Shown here: positions 57,180 to 63,990 of the stretch, one piece after another
How positions within the stretch are numbered: position 1 is the stretch's first letter
How the letters are laid out: each line of letters begins with the position of its first letter
Origin: Oscillospiraceae bacterium
Lineage (GTDB): Bacteria > Bacillota > Clostridia > Oscillospirales > JAAYXM01
DNA: 64,000 bases
Reading direction: 5' to 3'
NCBI GenBank assembly: GCA_017439555.1
Contig: JAFSIZ010000186.1
Span: 390 to 64,389 of the forward strand
Translations under genes and position numbers: made by a program
Notes under the pieces: model-generated
The model's database searches: none
Told to the model about the DNA's origin: nothing
What the model saw: the letters and a program-made list of their open reading frames with translations, nothing else

Positions 57180-57257
57180 AATTTTCACCGCGGCGCACAT
57201 TCTGCATAATATATAGTGAAGGATACTTCAAAACATCATTACGGGAGGTCAAAGCAA

Positions 57258-58115
57258 ATGCCTGACAACAAGGTATTGCCCGGCCCCATCCACGGTAATG
57301 CTCCGTGTGTGAAAGAGGCCGTGTGTATTCATACAAACAGAATTTACGACTCGTGCCGCGACAAGGAGTGTATTGAGAATCTTCGCGTCTATCCGACACG
57401 CTGCTCTCAGGAAATTCTCGACTGTGCATCAAGTGTCAAGAGCCGCGATGCGAGACTCGTCTGGACGAACATAGATGTGCGTGAGGTCGCGTTCAACCGC
57501 GGCTATTATTCGGTCGATATCCGCTTCTTCTATAAGATAAGCGTTGATGTGTGCTCGTGCAGCGGAAGAACGCAGAAGGTCAGCGGTCTTGCCGTCTATG
57601 ACAAAAACGTCATACTCTTCGGCAGTGAAGGCGATGTCAAGATATTCAGCTCGCGCTTTGAAGCCTGTTCAAAAGCCGCAACCAATATGCCGACAGCCTT
57701 TGTCGAGGCGGTTGACCCGATATTCCTCGATGCAGATATCTGCGATGCAAAGAGAGAGCTTTGCCGCGACCCGGAATGCGAATGCAGCTGTGATGAGCTT
57801 TGCGACGTGCCGCATTGCATCAGAGAGCTGTTTGAGGATGAGCTGATTGTAAGCGGCGGCTGCAAGAACCTGCTTGTAACGCTCGGGCAGTTCTCAATAG
57901 TGCGCCTTGAGCGCGACAGCCAGATACTCATTCCAGCATATGATTTCTGTATGCCCGAGAAGGAATGCGTTGGCTCGAGTGAGGATAGCCCCTGTGATCT
58001 GTTCCGCAGAATAAAGTTCCCGATAGGAGAGTTTTTCCCGAGCCCTGTGCGCGATGCAAACAGCGAGCCGCCTTGCGATTGCAAGCCGATTGCAAAAGGC
58101 TGCTGCCAGCGATAG
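57258..58115 (+). CDS. Cysteine-rich hypothetical protein
   Basis: 285 aa with a GGGAGG RBS before ATG 57258. Many Cys residues (CVKEAVCIH...DSCRDKECIEN...CECSCDELCDVPHC...). Confidence 0.5.
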   Translation: MPDNKVLPGPIHGNAPCVKEAVCIHTNRIYDSCRDKECIENLRVYPTRCSQEILDCASSVKSRDARLVWTNIDVREVAFNRGYYSVDIRFFYKISVDVCSCSGRTQKVSGLAVYDKNVILFGSEGDVKIFSSRFEACSKAATNMPTAFVEAVDPIFLDADICDAKRELCRDPECECSCDELCDVPHCIRELFEDELIVSGGCKNLLVTLGQFSIVRLERDSQILIPAYDFCMPEKECVGSSEDSPCDLFRRIKFPIGEFFPSPVRDANSEPPCDCKPIAKGCCQR

Positions 58116-58127
58116 GCATAACGAAGA

Positions 58128-58164
58128 AACAACCGGGGTGCATCGCCGCATCCCGGTTGTTTTC
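58128..58164. terminator. Bidirectional terminator closing the TIR/RyR operon
   Basis: aaacaaccggg...cccggttgttt. Confidence 0.75.
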
Positions 58165-58166
58165 CT

Positions 58167-58448
58167 CTATTTCTTTTCTATCTTATACCCGAGCTTTATT
58201 ACAAGCTTCAGGGTTTCATATGCTGTGCGCCTGTCAAAATCCTTTTCCTCCTCCCGAAGCTCGGAATAGGGGACGAGACAAGGTGTTTGTTTTTTGCTAT
58301 CGTCGCGCGTGGGGCCATAGGTCCAGCCCTCCGCAATACGCCCTTTTGCCCAGACATCGTGGACATTTTCGGCTATTTGCTCGCCAAGCTCGAGAAGTGA
58401 GGCATCGAGGGCTATATCATCAGTATTGACGGGTTTTGGTGTATACAT
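58167..58448 (-). CDS. Stand-alone RyR (ryanodine-receptor repeat) domain protein
   Basis: 93 aa. LGEQIAENVHDVWAKGRIAEGWTYGPTRDDSKKQTPCLVPYSELREEEKDFDR follows the RyR-domain consensus (E..H..W......GW.YG..RD...K.HP.LVP...L...EK..D) as I recall it. Confidence 0.8.
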   Translation of the reverse strand: MYTPKPVNTDDIALDASLLELGEQIAENVHDVWAKGRIAEGWTYGPTRDDSKKQTPCLVPYSELREEEKDFDRRTAYETLKLVIKLGYKIEKK

Positions 58449-58460
58449 ATAAAAATCTCC

Positions 58461-60224
58461 TTAAGCGTCGTCTTTTTCCTGCTCCGAAAGGGGCAGCTCA
58501 TCAAACGGGACAAGCATCGCGTGGGTTTTTGCCATATGGTTTTTCGGTCCTCTTCTATAGCCCTCAGAACGCATATAGGCGTTCCAGCGGCTGTGCTCTG
58601 TGTGCCTTAAAACGTCGAGCTCCTCGGGGGTTCTTTCCGAGGGTGCTTTGTCTGCGCCGGGGATGGCAAGGCGTTTGCACATCTCGATGTGGATTGCGGA
58701 TGCCATTGAGGATCTGTAGTTATATTCATATGCCCAGAAGCTTTCTTCGCTTCCGTATCGCATATGGCGGCCAAGGGCAAATCTCTCAAGCTCTGTGCTG
58801 AGGACGGCTTCCCCGGAATATATCGATCTCAGATCGCCGACAAAATCGATGTTATAGGGCTTTGGCGGATTTTCAAAATTACCGACACCGCAGAGCAGCT
58901 CCTTCTTTTCCGAATCATATACAACTGCCTGTATCATCGGAGAATAGCCTGCGTTGAGGAGAACACTGCGGAGTCTGACGGCGGTTTCAATATTCTGAGT
59001 ATCATCGCCGAGGGAGACGAAGGCATAGGTCACAGCGCCGATTTTTTCAAGCTCCTGCATAAATTCAGCCGTGTTTATTTCGATGCCCGGATGGATTGTG
59101 ATGTCATATCTGTTTTCCGGATGTGTTGAGTCATCGCCGCGGACAAGCTCGGGGCAGTTCATAAGAAATCTGCGCTCGGCGGCTTCATCAGAATCAAACA
59201 CATTGAGCTTCAGCTCATATCCCGGCATCTGGCAAAGCCAGGTGAGCGCCTTTGTCATTTCAAAGCCATATTCGCCCATACCGACAACGATTGCCGAGAT
59301 AAGCTTCTTTCCGTTTTCACAGTCACGTGCGCTCCTGAAGATATTTTCTCCCGATTTGTCGATTATATCATATGTAAGAGAACGGACAGGGTTGATTCTT
59401 CGCACCTTCATATTGAGATTTTTGTTTGCCGCATTGAGCAGAAGCTCGCTTTCGATGCAGGTAGAGAAGGCGAAAAGCTCTGTTTTTTGGCGAAGCCCAT
59501 ATTTTCTTATCAGGCCGAGTGACAGCTTGAGACTGTCGTTTTCGTCGTCAACCGTCAGGAATATAAGCTTTTTTGCCTTTGAATGAATGTCGAAGCGGAC
59601 AGACAGAATATCGCGCGAAAAGCATATCGCGCCGAGCTCCTGCGCCTGCTCGGCAAGCTCATATATATCGCTTTCCCTGTCCTGAGAGACATCCGTGAAA
59701 ACGATGACCGCGCTTTTGTGGTTTTCCTTTATATCGCGTGCAAGCGCCATCGATTTGCTGTTGAGCTCTGAGAAGATGTATGCGTCTTTTGAAAAGCTGA
59801 ACAAATATCTTCTGTATGCCGTGAGGTTTTTGAAGAATGAGAGAATAAAGCCGAAGGTGAGAAGCGGCGCGAGCACGAAGAGAATCGCGCACAGAACGGA
59901 ATATGCCGCTGCCGCAATGCCTCTGTTCTTTCCTATGGCATCAATGACAGACTGATAATCGGAATCGACAACAAAAAGCTTTATTGCATTGTGGACGGAA
60001 ACAAGGAAGGTTTTAATGTCAAACACGCCGCGGATATCGCCCCGGAACTCGTTTGCATAGACAGGGCAAAAAACCAAAAAGCTTGCGAGGAACACACCGA
60101 CGAACATAATGTTTATCGGAGACATAACTTTGTCTCTGTGTTTTGATGCGGCGGATATTGCCGCCGCAATTACGGTTATTGCAAGAATGGCGCCGGGGAT
60201 AAGAACATATGTCCAGATATTCAT
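58461..60224 (-). CDS. Membrane protein: N-terminal TM helices, Rossmann-like (GxGxxG) region, C-terminal RyR-like domain
   Basis: TM helices (IWTYVLIPGAILAITVIAAAI, INIMFVGVFLASFLVFCPVY, AYSVLCAILFVLAPLLTFGFIL). AIVVGMGEYGFEMT. The C-terminus is LRHTEHSRWNAYMRSEGYRRGP...KTHAMLVPFDELPLSEQEKD. Confidence 0.65.
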   Translation of the reverse strand: MNIWTYVLIPGAILAITVIAAAISAASKHRDKVMSPINIMFVGVFLASFLVFCPVYANEFRGDIRGVFDIKTFLVSVHNAIKLFVVDSDYQSVIDAIGKNRGIAAAAYSVLCAILFVLAPLLTFGFILSFFKNLTAYRRYLFSFSKDAYIFSELNSKSMALARDIKENHKSAVIVFTDVSQDRESDIYELAEQAQELGAICFSRDILSVRFDIHSKAKKLIFLTVDDENDSLKLSLGLIRKYGLRQKTELFAFSTCIESELLLNAANKNLNMKVRRINPVRSLTYDIIDKSGENIFRSARDCENGKKLISAIVVGMGEYGFEMTKALTWLCQMPGYELKLNVFDSDEAAERRFLMNCPELVRGDDSTHPENRYDITIHPGIEINTAEFMQELEKIGAVTYAFVSLGDDTQNIETAVRLRSVLLNAGYSPMIQAVVYDSEKKELLCGVGNFENPPKPYNIDFVGDLRSIYSGEAVLSTELERFALGRHMRYGSEESFWAYEYNYRSSMASAIHIEMCKRLAIPGADKAPSERTPEELDVLRHTEHSRWNAYMRSEGYRRGPKNHMAKTHAMLVPFDELPLSEQEKDDA

Positions 60225-60242
60225 GATTTTTCCTCCTGCTGT

Positions 60243-63200
60243 TTATTGTTTTGCCTTTGCGGAAAGCTCTGCTGTCGAATAGAGCGGATATTTTCCGATG
60301 ATGTCATATCGCGCGGTAATGACAGAATTATCACCCGGCAGATAACATTCCATTCCGCTTATATCATAACAGACCTCAAACGCCGAAAGGTCGATGAGAT
60401 AGGTATGCTCAAGACCAAATGCGATTTGCCAGCCGCTGAGCGCGAGCATATTGAGCTCCGGTATATATTGTGCTTCGGTGCTGTCGGAGGTAGCCATTCG
60501 TATCCTGTCGTTTTCGAGATCGACAGAGGAAGAAACCTCTCCGCTTTCAATTTCGACCTTATAGAGCTTTGAGTCATTGCAGAGCACGCCTATGTGTGTG
60601 TCGCTTCCGATATAGACAAGCGAAACAACGGATGGAAGAGCATATGTTCTGCGCTGCAGACACTTGCCGCTGTTGAGGTCAAAATGACCTGTCGTCCCGT
60701 CGCTGAGTCGAAGAAGGACGCTGTTGGCCGAAAGGAAGATTGCCTGCTCAATTTCAAGCCCCTTGCCGCTTTCGTCCTTTTCTTCAAGCTCAAGAACAAC
60801 GGGGGGCAGAGCAGGGGAGGTATATACCTCAAAATATGAAACATTTTCATATTTTCCATGTTCATTATAGCCTGAATATTTTGTTTTGGTAATAAGCTTG
60901 CTTCCGTCATCCGATGTGAAGAAGTCATAACCTGTGCTTGGTTTCATTTCGCCGCGCTTTGCCGCATGCTCTGAGATTTTTCCATATTCATCCACAAACA
61001 GAATTGTGCCGTTGCCACGGAACACGGCTTTGCCGCAGAAAACCTCAGGATCGGAAGAGGGCGAATATACGCCGTCGGGAAGCGTCAGCTGAGCTGTTTT
61101 CCCGCCTGTTGTGATATTATAGATTGCTATGCTTTTGTCGTTCTGAACAAGAAGCTTTGTATCGTTGAGCAAAGCCCATCTCATACCATAGTTGTCGAAA
61201 GCCGCAATAGTGATGAGCTTGTTCGCCTTTATGTCATAAACCGATATTTTCGTATATTCATCTATAACAGCATAGGTTTTTGAAGAATTGAGCCTGATAT
61301 CATCGCTTGTTGCGTGATGAATCTCAAGAAAGTCATCATTTTTGACATCTTCAAATATAAGTGCTTCGTTTGAATTTGCGTTTACTGTCGCATAATGAGC
61401 TGAATAGTATGCACATTTTTCGGGTTTGTTGAGAAGTGTGCGTGTCAGATATGGGTGCGGCTCAGGCTCTTCTTTTGTTCTGTTTCTTGAAGCTACTGCA
61501 ATTTCGCTTCCCTCTTTTGTGATTATAAAGAGGATTCCGTCTGATGCTGCGTGTGCGCAGGCAGCACTGCCGCCAAAATCATAGGAATACAGCAAGTCCC
61601 CTGTTGAGGCGTTGAAATACATGACCTTATTCGGGGTAAGGCAGAAATACATATCACAGAAATTGTTGCACCTTTCCGCTCGGAAAACGCCGGTTTTTAC
61701 TATTCCCGTGGAATAGGGGGAATCTGTCTCGGTGCGCCATATTACGTCAGCTGTCTGAGCATTGATGGTAAAGATTCCAAGCTTTCTTTTTGCAGATGCT
61801 GAATTTGAATGTTCAAAGACGGCGTAAGCTGTATTGTCTGCAATATCAAATGCATATATGTCTGAATATGTAAAGCTATCATATGTCGAATCTGCGCCTG
61901 CATCATAAATAACGGTCGGGTTAACGGCCTTTTCGCCATACACGTCAAAACACATAAGTGCAGGCTTATATGACTCGCTCGGAGATTCTGTCGAAAAATA
62001 CAGCTTGCTTCTGCTCCGCCCGACATATTTTGTGCTGTAGGTGTTGAGCTTGTAGCTCTCAATTTCAAACCGCTCTGTGAGCTCACCGCTGAATCTGTCG
62101 AATATTTCAATGATGTGACCTGTATTGTCGCTGTTGTTGTCAATTCTTGCAATCTCAGCTTCGGTTACATATACATTTGAAAGAGAATATCCCGAAGGAA
62201 CTGATTCCCAGAGGATTTCTCCTGTTTTGCCGCACAGCTTGAAGAAGCTTTTTCCTGCGGTTATAAGAATATCGCTTCCGGATATGTTCTCATCAACCGA
62301 AACCTTTTCAAAACCGTGCGTTGCGCCGGATGCATCCATAACGTAAACATCGCCGTTTTTCTTTTCAAAGGCGGCCGTCTTTATTTCACCTGTGTTGTCA
62401 TAATATATATATGGAGTATGATTGTCAAAATTGTCCGGTGTGTATTTTTTTATAAGCGCGCCTGTTTCGGCGTTGTGGAAATAGATGTTGTTCTTGTTGT
62501 CCTTTGCGACGATTGTCTTTCCATCACCTGCATATCCGATATCGGTTATTGCGCTGTCATAGATTATTTTGAGTGTGTTTTTGAAATTCTTTTGCTCAAA
62601 AGCGCCTATCTGGTTTGCAAGCGTGCGCTTTGCCGAAAGCACAAGCGGACGCGGATTGGATTCGCTCGGAAGAGCGGAAAGCACAGTATCAATTGCAGTT
62701 ACTCCGTCGCCGTGGTTCCAGAGTGTTTTTGAGAGGGTTACAAGGCTTTCTGAATTTTCAACCTGTGCAATTTTCGTCTGCTCGTTTGCGATGGCTTCAT
62801 TCGTTTGGGCAATCGTGCGTTGGCGGTTTGCCTCCTGAAGGTTTGCCTCCGCCGCGGCTCTCTGGCGCTCTGCTTCACGCAGGTTTGCCTCTGCTGCGGC
62901 CCTTTGCCGCTCTGCTTCACGCAGGTTTGCCATAGCCGCTGCCTTTTGCTTTTCTGCCTCACGGAGGTTCGTCTCTGCTGCGGCTCTCTGGCGTTCAGCT
63001 TCCTGAAGGTTTGCCTCTGCCTCCGCCGTTTTCTGTGCAAGGTCCTCGTTTGTCTGCATAAGGGTGCGGTTGCTCTCGTCAAGCTCCTGCGTCTTTGCTT
63101 CAAGGTTTGCGTTGGCAGCTTCAAGCGCCGCCTTCTGTGTGTTGATCTCATAGAGCATTGCGCTCGTATAGAGCCCGAAGGCAAATAAAAACGCAAAAAT

Positions 63201-63803
63201 CAATGCCGCGATGGTGATTATTCGCCTGACAGTGCGCTTCTGGTTTCTGTTGTAAAGCGCATCGTAGCCGACGCCGAGAAGCGGCGCGGCAATTCTTAAG
63301 AATTCGGTTTTCAGCTTGCGTAGCGAGCCTTGAAGCGTCGGGGCGACGATGTTTGCCGCAAGCGGCTCTATCACGTGGCTTCGGCGCGAAACGTTGCCTT
63401 CTGAATCGGTGACATCGATCATTTCTGTGCAGAGAGCGAGCGGGAACGCCGTCTGCGGCTCGCCATCGGAAAGAATCGTGATGATATTTGCGTTGTTGCC
63501 GTTGTGAAGCTCTTTGAAATATGTAATCTCCTCCATACACCAGCGCGAGTCCTTGGTGCTTTCGGAGCAAACGACTATGAGATATCGCGAATTTTCAAGC
63601 GCGTGCTTTATATCCTCGCTGAGGTTACTGCTTGTCGGAAGCTCTGTTTCATCGCGGAATATGCGCCAACGCTTGAAATCACCCTTGACTGACTTCGGGG
63701 GCTTATAGCTTTCGAGCATTTTCTGCAGCTTTTCTGCAACGGCTTTATCATGAGAGGTATGCCTATAGCTTATAAAGGCATCATATATATATTCTTTCTC
63801 CAT
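60243..63803 (-). CDS. TIR domain, TM helix, 14-aa-repeat coiled coil, large beta-propeller-like extracytoplasmic region
   Basis: N-terminal YDAFISYRH...RIFRDETEL...YLIVVCSESTKDSRWCMEEI (TIR, with the WCxxE Glu at residue 92). TM helix IITIAALIFAFLFAFGLYTSAML. (ANLREAERQRAAAE)n repeats. At least 8 blade-like motifs, e.g. IYFHNAETGALI, FKLCGKTGEILW, MYFNASTGDLLY, ISVYDIKANKLI, IAIYNITTGGKT. Confidence 0.8.
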   Translation of the reverse strand: MEKEYIYDAFISYRHTSHDKAVAEKLQKMLESYKPPKSVKGDFKRWRIFRDETELPTSSNLSEDIKHALENSRYLIVVCSESTKDSRWCMEEITYFKELHNGNNANIITILSDGEPQTAFPLALCTEMIDVTDSEGNVSRRSHVIEPLAANIVAPTLQGSLRKLKTEFLRIAAPLLGVGYDALYNRNQKRTVRRIITIAALIFAFLFAFGLYTSAMLYEINTQKAALEAANANLEAKTQELDESNRTLMQTNEDLAQKTAEAEANLQEAERQRAAAETNLREAEKQKAAAMANLREAERQRAAAEANLREAERQRAAAEANLQEANRQRTIAQTNEAIANEQTKIAQVENSESLVTLSKTLWNHGDGVTAIDTVLSALPSESNPRPLVLSAKRTLANQIGAFEQKNFKNTLKIIYDSAITDIGYAGDGKTIVAKDNKNNIYFHNAETGALIKKYTPDNFDNHTPYIYYDNTGEIKTAAFEKKNGDVYVMDASGATHGFEKVSVDENISGSDILITAGKSFFKLCGKTGEILWESVPSGYSLSNVYVTEAEIARIDNNSDNTGHIIEIFDRFSGELTERFEIESYKLNTYSTKYVGRSRSKLYFSTESPSESYKPALMCFDVYGEKAVNPTVIYDAGADSTYDSFTYSDIYAFDIADNTAYAVFEHSNSASAKRKLGIFTINAQTADVIWRTETDSPYSTGIVKTGVFRAERCNNFCDMYFCLTPNKVMYFNASTGDLLYSYDFGGSAACAHAASDGILFIITKEGSEIAVASRNRTKEEPEPHPYLTRTLLNKPEKCAYYSAHYATVNANSNEALIFEDVKNDDFLEIHHATSDDIRLNSSKTYAVIDEYTKISVYDIKANKLITIAAFDNYGMRWALLNDTKLLVQNDKSIAIYNITTGGKTAQLTLPDGVYSPSSDPEVFCGKAVFRGNGTILFVDEYGKISEHAAKRGEMKPSTGYDFFTSDDGSKLITKTKYSGYNEHGKYENVSYFEVYTSPALPPVVLELEEKDESGKGLEIEQAIFLSANSVLLRLSDGTTGHFDLNSGKCLQRRTYALPSVVSLVYIGSDTHIGVLCNDSKLYKVEIESGEVSSSVDLENDRIRMATSDSTEAQYIPELNMLALSGWQIAFGLEHTYLIDLSAFEVCYDISGMECYLPGDNSVITARYDIIGKYPLYSTAELSAKAKQ
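62835..63027 (-). repeat. Coding tandem repeat, 42 bp x about 4.6
   Basis: Forward-strand units ctgaaggtttgcctc(c/t)gc(c/t)gcggc(t/c)ct(c/t)tg(g/c)cgctctgcttc encode ANL(R/Q)EAE(R/K)Q(R/K)AAAE. Confidence 0.85.
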
Positions 63804-63834
63804 AGAATCATCCCCTTTTATAAATACCCATTTT

Positions 63835-63862
63835 ATTATAACATCTTTTCAAAAAAGGTCAA
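63835..63862 (-). promoter_or_regulatory. Promoter of the TIR/RyR operon
   Basis: Minus strand: TTGACC, 16-nt spacer, TG-t-TATAAT (extended -10), about 30 nt upstream of the start codon. Confidence 0.6.
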
Positions 63863-63883: not shown

Positions 63884-63914
63884 AAAAAACGACTTGCAAA
63901 AAGCAAGTCGTTTT
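63884..63914 (-). terminator. Terminator downstream of tRNA-Lys
   Basis: acgacttgc/gcaagtcgt hairpin followed on the minus strand by a T-run. Confidence 0.8.
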
Positions 63915-63990
63915 TGGTGATCCACCGGAGGCTCGAACTCCGGACACCCGCCTTAAAAGGGCGGTGCTCTACCTACTGAGCTAGTGGATC
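63915..63990 (-). tRNA. tRNA-Lys (anticodon UUU), CCA encoded
   Basis: The hand-folded cloverleaf is acceptor GAUCCAC/GUGGAUC, D arm GCUC-AGUAGGUA-GAGC, anticodon arm CCGCC-CUUUUAA-GGCGG, T arm CGGAG-UUCGAGC-CUCCG, discriminator A, then CCA. Total 76 nt. Confidence 0.9.

Follow-up and report, generated by a model that had tools for sequence, protein, structure and literature searches.

A TIR receptor-like gene paired with a membrane Rossmann/RyR-like gene in an Oscillospiraceae bacterium: a candidate Thoeris-like module

The operon and its surroundings

Three tightly packed genes (g1, g2 and g3), all on the minus strand, lie in a 64,000-nt window, the whole stretch of DNA analysed here, from a gut Clostridia genome (Oscillospiraceae bacterium, GCA_017439555.1, contig JAFSIZ010000186.1). 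A strong promoter precedes them, a strong terminator follows them and tRNA-Lys is located upstream. The features of the locus are:

63915..63990, minus strand: tRNA-Lys, anticodon UUU (ARAGORN), on the same strand as the operon and immediately upstream
63885..63915, minus strand: the tRNA gene's own terminator hairpin (13-bp stem and T run), insulating the promoter of the operon
63835..63862, minus strand: operon promoter, TTGACC, 16-nt spacer and TG-extended TATAAT
60243..63803, minus strand: g1, TIR-TM-coiled coil-beta-propeller protein, 1186 aa (Pfam); proposed sensor and signal synthase
63354..63803, minus strand: g1 TIR domain, aa 1-150 (Pfam matches; S86-x-W88-C89-x-x-E92)
63144..63236, minus strand: single TM helix of g1, about aa 190-220 (hydropathy scan and translation)
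62739..63143, minus strand: g1 coiled-coil stalk, aa 221-355 (TRF, direct repeats, SMC/JetC coiled-coil-type matches)
60246..62738, minus strand: predicted extracytoplasmic beta-propeller region of g1, aa 356-1186 (weak PQQ_2/WD40-type matches)
58461..60224, minus strand: g2, three TM helices, two RCK/TrkA-like Rossmann domains and an RyR-like domain, 587 aa; proposed signal-gated membrane effector
59799..60224, minus strand: g2 membrane domain, aa 1-142 (TM helices 1-27, 32-60 and 100-134)
58815..59792, minus strand: g2 tandem Rossmann/RCK-like domains, aa 145-300 and 305-470 (model, fold search, alignment)
58464..58802, minus strand: g2 RyR-like C-terminal domain, aa 475-587 (hhalign, fold search, RyDEP alignment)
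58167..58448, minus strand: g3, stand-alone RyR domain, 93 aa (Pfam); proposed signal buffer, hydrolase or co-sensor
58126..58163, no strand assigned: hairpin terminator, 16-bp stem, between g3 and a convergent gene ending at 58115

The layout agrees with a previous reading made from the sequence alone, which had described three close genes with their own promoter and terminal hairpin next to a tRNA gene. The intergenic gaps measure 18 nt (g1/g2) and 12 nt (g2/g3) and contain AGGAGG/GGAG ribosome-binding sites, and the promoter is the top-scoring one of an 8-kb scan (11/12 positions). The terminator is probably common to g3 and the convergent gene, because it is placed between both. The same reading saw in the adjoining tRNA a possible integration hotspot, a suggestion that found no support: neither an integrase nor an att-like repeat of the tRNA end was found at the locus, and the order of tRNA-Lys, operon and flank is also present in a second species (locus L085), where the orthologous operon is preceded by the same tRNA 3' end. 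The stretch between the -10 element and the ribosome-binding site is kept in L085 and L086. Housekeeping genes, rather than a defence island, surround the operon in the window.

Domain architecture of the three proteins

All domain calls of the sequence-only reading are correct, including that of a TIR domain with an S-x-W-C-x-x-E motif at the start of g1. This domain matches TIR_2 (E=2.6e-13, passing the Pfam cut-off), TIR (2.6e-10) and ThsB_TIR (5.7e-10), and carries the motif S86-R-W88-C89-M-E-E92, in which the catalytic glutamate E92 (codon 63528-63530) belongs to a position kept in 48 of 48 TIR domains located beside g2 homologues. The TM helix is preceded by KRTVRR, and by the positive-inside rule the TIR domain is therefore predicted to face inside and the C-terminus outside. 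The stalk contains a 42-bp (14-aa) repeat (ANLREAERQRAAAE; 4.4 copies, 62837-63021, TRF), and the weak beta-propeller matches are spread over aa 400-1100 (Pfam) and are stronger in g1 homologues. The propeller region is hypervariable among orthologues: its identity to that of the L085 orthologue is 42%, as compared with 83% in the TIR domain and 80% in the flanking gene, and it evolves about twice as fast as either. Hence, g1 is predicted to be a receptor that spans the membrane once and whose outside domain evolves fast, a feature overlooked in the sequence-only reading. At least 491 g1 homologues of about 1100-1250 aa exist. The nearest full-length ones, L085 aside, occur without g2, in Tubulin_2/transglutaminase/WHH-toxin clusters and SpoIIE-STAS-kinase modules.

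The composition proposed earlier for g2 (TM helices, a GxGxxG motif and an RyR-like tail) is borne out by hydropathy, sequence and fold comparisons. In the membrane domain, helix 67-97, between TM2 and TM3, is amphipathic or re-entrant (model and hydropathy), and residues P120, T123, F131 and N133 are invariant in the homologue alignment. The second Rossmann domain contains an invariant GxGxxG (G315-M-G-E-Y-G320, 59265-59282) and an invariant D344. For the AF2 model (pLDDT 89.9), Foldseek ranks the GsuK channel and TrkA gating ring highest. Like GsuK and TrkA/KtrA rings (4gx5; TrkA 4g65, 4j9u), g2 has a tandem RCK/KTN Rossmann architecture with a nucleotide site, a module that in those proteins is attached to, or acts on, a membrane ion pathway. 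However, identity to them is low (10-14%), the TM-score by query is modest (0.32-0.36), GxGxxG has been lost from the first Rossmann domain of g2, and g2 bears three TM helices and an additional C-terminal RyR-like domain. Since no recognisable K+ selectivity-filter motif was found in its membrane domain, a channel function of g2 is a conjecture.

The RyR match of the g2 C-terminus is weak in Pfam (E=0.01, under the Pfam cut-off), but clear in hhalign against the RyR alignment (97.4%, E=1e-11). The isolated domain is modelled with a pLDDT of 91.6, and its top 50 PDB matches in the fold search are all RyR repeats, including nucleotide-bound RyR3 R12; for this small domain the Foldseek E-values are weak (0.07-0.9), though exclusive to RyR. 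The tail superposes on Bacteroides thetaiotaomicron (Bt) and animal RyR repeats at 0.9-3 Å over 51-65 residues, and the repeat ends after the Asp, without the last helix. By direct alignment, its residues H544, W547, H568 and D585, invariant in 45 g2 homologues, correspond to H75, W78, H100 and D117 of the phage protein RyDEP.

The small protein g3 is, as previously read, a stand-alone RyR protein, matching PF02026 over its full length (E=3e-35) and the Bt RyR structure 3NRT at 1e-33. E-values go down to 3.8e-62 against native RyR chains and 3.3e-68 against a Bt-human RyR chimera, so that g3 is a close sequence relative of the Bt 'putative ryanodine receptor' (3NRT, 6UAG) and of animal RyR Repeat12. 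No partner TIR is established for the Bt protein. Animal RyR repeats are part of a 5000-aa Ca2+ channel, whereas the g3 repeat stands alone and the truncated g2 repeat is carried by an unrelated membrane protein. In the RyDEP alignment, g3 has H30, W33, T55 and D72; it keeps the His/Asp dyad, and T55 replaces the canonical phosphate-binding His. Thr occupies this His100 position in every other g2-linked small RyR protein as well.

Association of g2 homologues with TIR genes

The g2 family comprises 1356 clusters at 50% identity (E<=1e-30) and is nearly missing from viral contigs (1 in 2.9 million). Co-occurrence of TIR and RyR genes, the check proposed by the sequence-only reading, was assessed in 79 related g2 loci from other species. 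TIR genes are the commonest immediate neighbours of g2 homologues, lying within 150 nt in 25 of the 79 loci; among the 48 loci flanked by at least 3 kb on both sides, 24 have one within 3 kb. Up to 1 kb from g2, 19.3 TIR genes occur per 100 kb, versus 0.8 per 100 kb at a distance of 6-10 kb, an enrichment of about 24-fold. The pairing is thus confirmed to exceed chance and to recur in many other species. About half of the well-flanked loci contain no TIR gene within 10 kb, and therefore g2 is not obligately TIR-linked.

These data bear on the very improbable explanation that the genes are chance neighbours in variable islands, with unrelated functions and an accidental shared operon in the window. 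Homologues of g2 do reside in co-directional islands of mosaic composition, where their neighbours vary widely (including clusters c1, c4, c5, c6 and c8), and no TIR gene is present in half of the well-flanked loci. Yet the enrichment is distance-dependent, the intergenic gaps measure 4-32 nt, 41 of 42 TIR genes share the strand of g2, and the TIR proteins fall into 10 distinct, unrelated clusters encoded either upstream or downstream of g2. The biochemistry of RyR domains and cADPR, described below, also provides a rationale for a TIR-RyR link.

The conserved core consists of two genes, TIR and g2. Of the self-contained three-gene unit described earlier, this core stands; g3 is optional and outside the conserved unit, because only 5 of 80 other g2 loci contain it, and the syntenic orthologous locus, L085, does not. 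Where present, the small RyR gene always follows immediately after a member of the g2-type effector cluster, which may be a g2 homologue, a g2 paralogue of greater length or the AAA+/M41 gene between them. All three gene types recur in other orders (G2-RyR-TIR in L048, G2'-RyR-x-TIR in L041). A TM-less g2 paralogue is the first gene of an operon with two TIR genes in L087, and another lies upstream of a divergent g1-like TIR gene in L084. Some loci carry two or three TIR genes.

A putative second-messenger module and its alternatives

[quoted passage not shown] All four are retained in g2, and H, W and D in g3, in keeping with the shared RyR fold. RyDEP and its viral relatives differ in being phage-encoded to defeat TIR signalling (PMC13232231), whereas g2 and g3 are host-encoded in a TIR operon, the repeat in g2 is shortened and joined to a membrane effector, and g3 has Thr at His100. 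The TIR-g2 pairing and this chemistry are two independent supports for the idea that a TIR-derived signal may be sensed by the RyR/Rossmann protein. We consider it somewhat probable that the operon is a Thoeris-like TIR second-messenger module with an effector not described before.

In such a module, the g1 propeller would detect an envelope cue outside the cell, upon which the TIR domains would assemble and produce from NAD+ a signal derived from ADPR, most likely one of the cyclic ADPR isomers. The signal would bind the cytoplasmic RyR/Rossmann part of g2; the ligand could occupy the Rossmann site in place of the RyR-like tail. The RCK-like module would relay the binding change to the membrane domain, which would leak or conduct ions, leading to growth arrest or abortive infection. 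The g3 protein might sequester or hydrolyse the signal, setting a threshold or turning the system off, or alternatively pair with the half-repeat of g2. Type III CRISPR systems encode ring nucleases, signal-degrading regulators within signalling defence systems. As a small optional operon protein that may bind or destroy the messenger, g3 would be analogous to them, although its fold and chemistry are unrelated.

Thoeris systems of types I-XI (ThsB with effectors ThsA/C-L) likewise place a catalytic-Glu TIR beside an effector with a small-molecule-sensing domain, let one effector be served by several different TIR genes, and include membrane-acting effectors (types II, VI, VII and X). The earlier impression that the combination falls outside named TIR systems stands: PADLOC models gave no match to the g2 effector or to the TIR-g2 combination, and the consulted text and tables of the 2025 survey mention no effector of the RyR, TrkA or Rossmann kind. 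As far as checked against these, the g2 effector lies outside types I-XI. The type X 'ion channel' effector described there is unrelated to g2 (hhalign 0.1%).

Several observations run against the Thoeris-like reading. The g1 TIR belongs to a protein predicted to cross the membrane once and to carry a huge domain outside, an outward sensor atypical of ThsB proteins. The RyR repeat of g2 is incomplete, with a Pfam score below the cut-off. The nearest full-length g1 homologues, L085 aside, lack g2, and the window surroundings are housekeeping.

A different explanation, which we regard as distinctly unlikely, is that the TIR is an NAD+-depleting NADase effector. In that case the GxGxxG site of g2 would sense how NAD(H)/ATP or linear ADPR changes as a result, and the RyR modules would bind ordinary adenine nucleotides instead of a dedicated signal. 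The invariant GxGxxG and D344 are typical of NAD/ATP-binding KTN domains, RyR3 R12 and Bt RyR structures contain ATP, ADP or AMP-PCP, and many bacterial TIRs are NADase effectors (10.64898/2025.12.03.692087). However, effector-type TIRs normally go together with a separate sensor or cyclase, either in one fusion protein or as a pair, whereas the g1 TIR forms the N-terminus of a receptor-like protein whose partner lacks an enzymatic killing domain. The four RyDEP cADPR contacts, including the terminal-ribose dyad, are invariant in g2, and the diversity of TIR genes per g2 follows the ThsB pattern.

It is possible, but rather unlikely, that the operon is a non-immune outside-in pathway in which the messenger of the TIR receptor tunes ion (K+) homeostasis through a TrkA-like membrane protein in response to an environmental or envelope cue, for example host glycans, cell-wall stress or competitor contact, serving physiology or inter-bacterial conflict and not phage defence. 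The predicted outward-facing sensor, the likeness of g2 to the K+ regulators TrkA and GsuK, and the syntenic position among housekeeping genes in two species are consistent with this, as are partner TIR proteins of g2 with LRR, SBP_bac_3 or beta-propeller ectodomains and g1 homologues adjoining partner-switching modules (SpoIIE, STAS, HATPase_c_2) or WHH-toxin/SUKH/FtsK-type clusters. On the other hand, the hypervariable g1 ectodomain (42% versus 83%), the multiple, swapped TIR partners at some loci, the CARF-PD(D/E)xK nuclease and IetA-like AAA+ proteins in g2 neighbourhoods, and the part that signalling TIRs of bacteria and RyR-domain proteins are known to play in phage conflict together favour an arms-race function.

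Overall, the observation of a TIR/RyR operon is confirmed, and its interpretation as a signalling or defence module is partly supported: TIR-g2 pairing and the cADPR-contact residues argue for it, while g3 membership and the integration hint are not supported, and the function itself is predicted from sequence. If the Thoeris-like reading is true, the operon may offer a possible bacterial counterpart of the animal link from cADPR to the ryanodine receptor.

Organization and inheritance of the operon

The operon comprises three minus-strand genes, encoding a TIR receptor (g1), a membrane protein with Rossmann-type and RyR-like domains (g2) and a small RyR protein (g3), and lies downstream of a tRNA-Lys gene.

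60243-63803, minus: g1, ORF of 1186 aa
58461-60224, minus: g2, ORF of 587 aa
58167-58448, minus: g3, ORF of 93 aa
63862-63835: operon promoter, TTGACC-16-TG-TATAAT, best match in an 8-kb scan
58126-58163: hairpin with a 16-bp stem that ends the operon, just past the end of a convergent gene at 58115
63915-63990, same strand as the operon: tRNA-Lys(UUU) with its own terminator, upstream of the operon

The gaps between g1 and g2 and between g2 and g3 are 18 and 12 nt long and contain the ribosome-binding sites AGGAGG and GGAG. The layout described in the sequence-only reading is thereby confirmed. The genes around the operon are housekeeping genes (NrdD and GerA/B/C), and a comparison of GC content between the operon (43-53%) and nearby DNA (44-54%) revealed no clear foreign base-composition signature. 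A search of the window for homologues of the clusters that recur as neighbours of g2 homologues in other genomes (c1-c23) found none, so only the compact operon is present there.

The closest relative of the operon is an orthologous operon (L085/L086) that shares synteny on both flanks: upstream lie the 3' end of tRNA-Lys and its terminator, as in the window, and downstream lies the same cysteine-rich gene. Neither an att-like direct repeat of the tRNA-Lys end nor an integrase was found in the window. Integration at tRNA-Lys, hinted at from the sequence alone on the grounds that such genes are hotspots, was therefore rejected, and the position of the operon is inherited rather than the result of a recent insertion. 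The orthologous operon contains only TIR and g2 genes, which makes g3 an optional add-on.

Identity between the window and the L085 operon
g1 TIR domain: 83%
flanking cysteine-rich gene: 80%
g1 coiled coil: 68%
g2: 59.5%
g1 outside (beta-propeller) region: 42%

The difference between 42% and 83% within a single protein implies that the sensor part of g1 diversifies much faster than its catalytic part. The cysteine-rich ORF itself (299 aa, 57216-58115, plus strand) is convergent to the operon and has no Pfam match; the identity of 80% refers to its C-terminal 138 aa, the gene appearing truncated in L085, where a large serine recombinase (Resolvase/Recombinase/Zn_ribbon_recom) is located ~300 bp past it.

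Domain structure of the putative receptor, the membrane protein and the small RyR protein

Residues 7-132 of g1 match TIR_2 (2.6e-13), TIR and ThsB_TIR (5.7e-10), all above the Pfam cut-offs, and the putative catalytic glutamate E92 lies within S86-R-W-C-M-E-E92 (SRWCMEE), in accordance with the TIR domain and S-x-W-C-x-x-E motif recognized earlier at the start of this gene. The TIR domain is followed by a single hydrophobic helix (~190-220) preceded by the basic stretch KRTVRR, from which a topology with a cytoplasmic TIR domain and an outside C-terminus is predicted. Residues 221-355 form a coiled coil built partly from a 42-bp tandem repeat (62837-63021, 4.4 copies, 73% matches) that encodes a 14-aa coiled-coil unit. 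The copy number of such tandem repeats can vary, changing stalk length. The remaining ~830 residues carry weak beta-propeller signatures that are clearer in homologues. Several close homologues of g1 are found elsewhere in Tubulin_2-transglutaminase-DUF87-WHH/SUKH clusters or in SpoIIE/STAS/anti-sigma-kinase modules. At two such loci (L084:3612-10735 and L087:837-10639), a partner-switching set (SpoIIE phosphatase, HATPase_c_2 kinase and STAS) precedes the g1-like TIR receptors.

The predicted structure of g2 is confident (pLDDT 89.9) and consists of three transmembrane (TM) helices, the second and third of which are separated by an amphipathic helix, and two Rossmann-type domains. The best fold matches (Foldseek) were the RCK-gated GsuK channel and the TrkA gating ring. 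While the first Rossmann domain is degenerate, the second has an invariant G315xG317xxG320 and a nearly invariant D344 at the end of beta2. The protein thus shares with TrkA/KTN (RCK) proteins the tandem Rossmann arrangement, the glycine motif and the acidic residue. It has no Pfam TrkA_N match, although one homologue has a precomputed PF02254 match, and inspection of the membrane-domain sequence revealed no K+ selectivity-filter motif, so that the Pfam match and the association with a K+ pore or transporter that mark TrkA/KTN proteins are both absent.

The C-terminus of g2 (aa 475-587) scores below the Pfam cut-off for RyR (PF02026; 16.5 against 27.4 bits) and matches only profile positions 27-71 rather than a full repeat, but profile-profile alignment (hhalign) supports the assignment (97.4% probability, E=1e-11). 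Since the whole-protein fold search masked this small domain, aa 472-587 were modelled separately (pLDDT 91.6). The top 50 PDB matches of this model were all RyR repeats, including B. thetaiotaomicron RyR and human RyR3 Repeat12, some of them nucleotide-bound; they fit within 0.9-3 A over 51-65 residues, with the weak E-values (0.07-0.9) of a small domain. The repeat stops right after a conserved aspartate and lacks the last helix of the canonical repeat. On the strength of the hhalign result and the RyR-only fold matches, the C-terminus is treated as a truncated, divergent RyR repeat. Of the domains proposed for g2 from the sequence alone, the TM helices and the GxGxxG region were thus borne out, and the RyR-like C-terminus gained from alignment and fold what it lacks in Pfam score. 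The g2 family comprises 1356 clusters at 50% identity (E<=1e-30) that are annotated only as hypothetical. A phage origin was considered and rejected: a single match was found in 2.9 million viral contigs, and no TIR gene adjoined it.

RyR domains have recently been described in phage proteins (RyDEP) that bind 2'cADPR and 3'cADPR, the Thoeris signals made by TIR proteins, at nanomolar affinity, or cleave both, through the ligand residues H75, W78, H100 and D117 (PMC13232231, May 2026 preprint). Direct alignment with the reference RyDEP, DyoEdafos gp78, places H544, W547, H568 and D585 of g2 at these four positions, and all four residues are invariant in 45 homologues; cADPR binding by g2 is thus a prediction from sequence. 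The conserved Rossmann site of g2 accommodates an alternative, in which the TIR protein is an NADase effector and g2 senses NAD(H) or ATP, while the RyDEP-type residues strengthen the core of the earlier proposal that a TIR product is sensed by the RyR/Rossmann protein.

g3 spans a complete RyR domain (profile positions 1-91, E=3e-35) and at 120.8 bits exceeds the cut-off of 27.4, as expected of the stand-alone 93-aa RyR protein first noticed; it is close to B. thetaiotaomicron RyR. It keeps three of the four RyDEP ligand residues (H30, W33 and D72) and has T55 at the H100 position. This threonine is common to g3 and all five other g2-linked small RyR proteins, within a 'K-T/Q-T-P-C-L' motif (58284-58286 for T55 in the window; also in L040, L041, L048, L049 and L075), whereas canonical RyR repeats and RyDEP have a phosphate-binding histidine there; the substitution may reflect a distinct ligand preference or weaker binding. 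Along its entire length, g3 is 59% identical to a protein encoded on an unannotated 12-kb phage contig (Bacteriophage sp. from human faeces, GenBank MT837259.1, 934-1206). The remaining 233 RyR matches in phages are much more distant (under 54%, partial lengths); g3-like proteins thus circulate on gut phages too.

Genomic coupling of TIR genes and g2 homologues

When one genome per species was scanned with a profile, 258 g2 relatives were identified, and 80 loci were retained. All 80 come from Clostridia metagenome-assembled genomes or uncultured-Clostridia assemblies, the named sources being mostly animal guts, and the system is abundant among Clostridia from human and livestock guts. A single-sequence phmmer search with the g1 TIR domain placed a TIR gene beside g2 at only 2 of the 80 loci. 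This near-absence was a false negative caused by the divergence of TIR sequences, as an iterated TIR HMM found TIR genes at 36 g2 loci.

TIR genes around g2 homologues (iterated TIR HMM)
TIR gene <=150 nt from g2 homologue: 25/79 loci
TIR gene <=3 kb from g2 homologue: 33/79 loci
TIR gene <=3 kb, loci with >=3 kb on both flanks: 24/48 loci
TIR density <=1 kb from g2: 19.3 per 100 kb
TIR density 6-10 kb from g2: 0.8 per 100 kb
TIR genes co-directional with g2: 41/42
Distinct TIR protein clusters adjacent to g2: 10
Neighbouring TIR domains keeping the catalytic Glu: 48/48

TIR proteins, with either BspA-LRR or TM and LRR regions, are the commonest neighbours of g2 homologues. One alternative is that TIR and g2 genes are merely co-resident in variable islands: the link is not obligate, as half of the well-flanked loci have no TIR gene, while the local enrichment at g2 is ~24-fold and nearly all the TIR genes run in the same direction. 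The TIR gene lies upstream or downstream of g2, and some loci have more than one (two or three). Paralogues of g2 without TM helices (473-480 aa) also occur near TIR genes, including g1-like receptors: in L087, such a paralogue is the first gene of an operon that includes two TIR genes, one with an SBP_bac_3 domain, and in L084, another lies upstream of a g1-like TIR gene in divergent orientation. Such a pattern would be expected of a sensor/effector pair, and resembles the multiple ThsB (TIR protein) genes of Thoeris.

Small RyR genes accompany g2 at only 5 of the 80 loci, which, together with their absence from L085/L086, corrects the initial view of a three-gene unit. In every case they immediately follow a member of the g2-type effector cluster, be it a g2 homologue, a longer paralogue of g2 or an intervening AAA+/M41 gene, and at two loci a TIR gene adjoins (G2-RyR-TIR in L048 and G2'-RyR-x-TIR in L041). 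A variant order, g2, AAA+/M41 protein, longer g2 paralogue (678-957 aa) and small RyR, is found in L041:867-10381, L049:5036-13571 and L075:289-6233; its 1160-1200-aa protein combines a double AAA+ (IetA/DolB-like) with an M41 protease, and an 80-89-aa gene and a TIR gene are present or absent after the small RyR.

Other neighbours recur as well. A full-length CARF-PD(D/E)xK nuclease (PADLOC CARF4, E=1e-32; Pfam Card1_endonuc) lies directly upstream of the g2 homologue at 8-11 loci (L003:361-1629, with equivalents in L016, L031, L037, L040, L048 and L049), with no CRISPR context visible at these loci; judged by its domains, it is a putative second nucleotide-activated effector beside the RyR-type one. 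IetA-like AAA+ proteins are also found beside g2 homologues, and both neighbours are compatible with a nucleotide-signalling or defence setting. At 18 loci, a co-directional module of three clusters (c8-c4-c1) precedes g2 (e.g. L001:1-9886), and the module also occurs in L081:1-6970 and L083:1-6972. It encodes a Tubulin_2 protein of ~1190 aa, a membrane protein of 594-738 aa and a protein of 1264-1958 aa in which a transglutaminase core is combined with a zinc-ribbon and an HExxH motif. The module is followed by TIR receptors or g2, with DUF87, WHH toxin, SUKH immunity and FtsK/SpoIIIE genes added in L081/L083.

Relation to Thoeris and proposed signalling route

The best-supported reading of the operon is a Thoeris-like module. 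As in Thoeris, a TIR protein with a catalytic glutamate (E92 in g1) is adjacent to an effector with ligand domains, here RyR-like and Rossmann domains. A December 2025 survey of TIR systems distinguishes Thoeris types I-XI and 29 putative effector classes (10.64898/2025.12.03.692087); in its accessible portion, g2 corresponds to no effector of the named types, and no RyR, PF02026, TrkA, Rossmann or RCK entries were found. Neither the PADLOC (2023) models nor NCBIfam contain a match to g2 or g3. A type X 'ion channel' locus was recovered via its published TIR sequence, and membership of this type was rejected, since the 208-aa effector of that locus is Ion_trans_2-like and shows no relationship to g2. 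Besides the RyDEP preprint of 2026, no publication was found that connects TIR or SLOG conflict systems with RyR domains. That preprint assigns RyR domains to viral counter-defence; host effectors with such domains are not described in it (PMC13232231). Unlike the phage-encoded RyDEP, g2 and g3 are encoded by the host, and viral contigs contain almost no members of the g2 family. The operon is rated as TIR signalling in which the membrane effector, of RyR/RCK type, is new and the TIR receptor faces outward.

In the proposed route, g1 would sense an envelope cue and make an ADPR-derived messenger, which g2 would bind via its RyR-like pocket, possibly together with the Rossmann site or through the Rossmann site instead. 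g2 would then act at the membrane, causing an ion leak or depolarisation, possibly in defence against phages. g3 may buffer or hydrolyse the messenger, or complete the half-repeat of g2. The same outside-in layout could instead serve a non-immune pathway controlling ion homeostasis, a role close to that of the RCK and TrkA folds that g2 resembles; the CARF and IetA-like neighbours are compatible with defence. TIR product sensing by the RyR/Rossmann protein, now coupled genomically as well as by its pocket residues, is the part of the earlier proposal that was strengthened. A bolder version, in which a receptor with an outward, fast-evolving sensor produces a cyclic ADPR isomer and this isomer directly gates an ion-conducting membrane protein via an RyR repeat, with g3 as an RyR-domain off-switch, is speculative and rather unlikely. 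If true, prokaryotes would possess a 'cADPR opens an RyR-domain channel' pathway, arranged outside-in in the style of a Toll-like receptor, and its built-in off-switch would be of the same kind as the anti-Thoeris RyR proteins of phages.

If the Thoeris-like reading is correct, a new effector class of >1300 essentially unannotated clusters (50% identity) would be added to TIR signalling, and the RyR repeat, which in this setting has so far been known solely as a counter-measure of phages, would be a sensor domain. Bacterial TIR signalling might then start outside the cell, via hypervariable LRR or beta-propeller ectodomains, following Toll-like-receptor logic, and hosts may control the signal they make with an RyR-domain protein. 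In animals, a connection of cADPR with ryanodine-receptor repeats has been a matter of long dispute. It would become testable in a simple two-gene bacterial system, and the interest of the operon lies in this tractable test of the cADPR-RyR connection.
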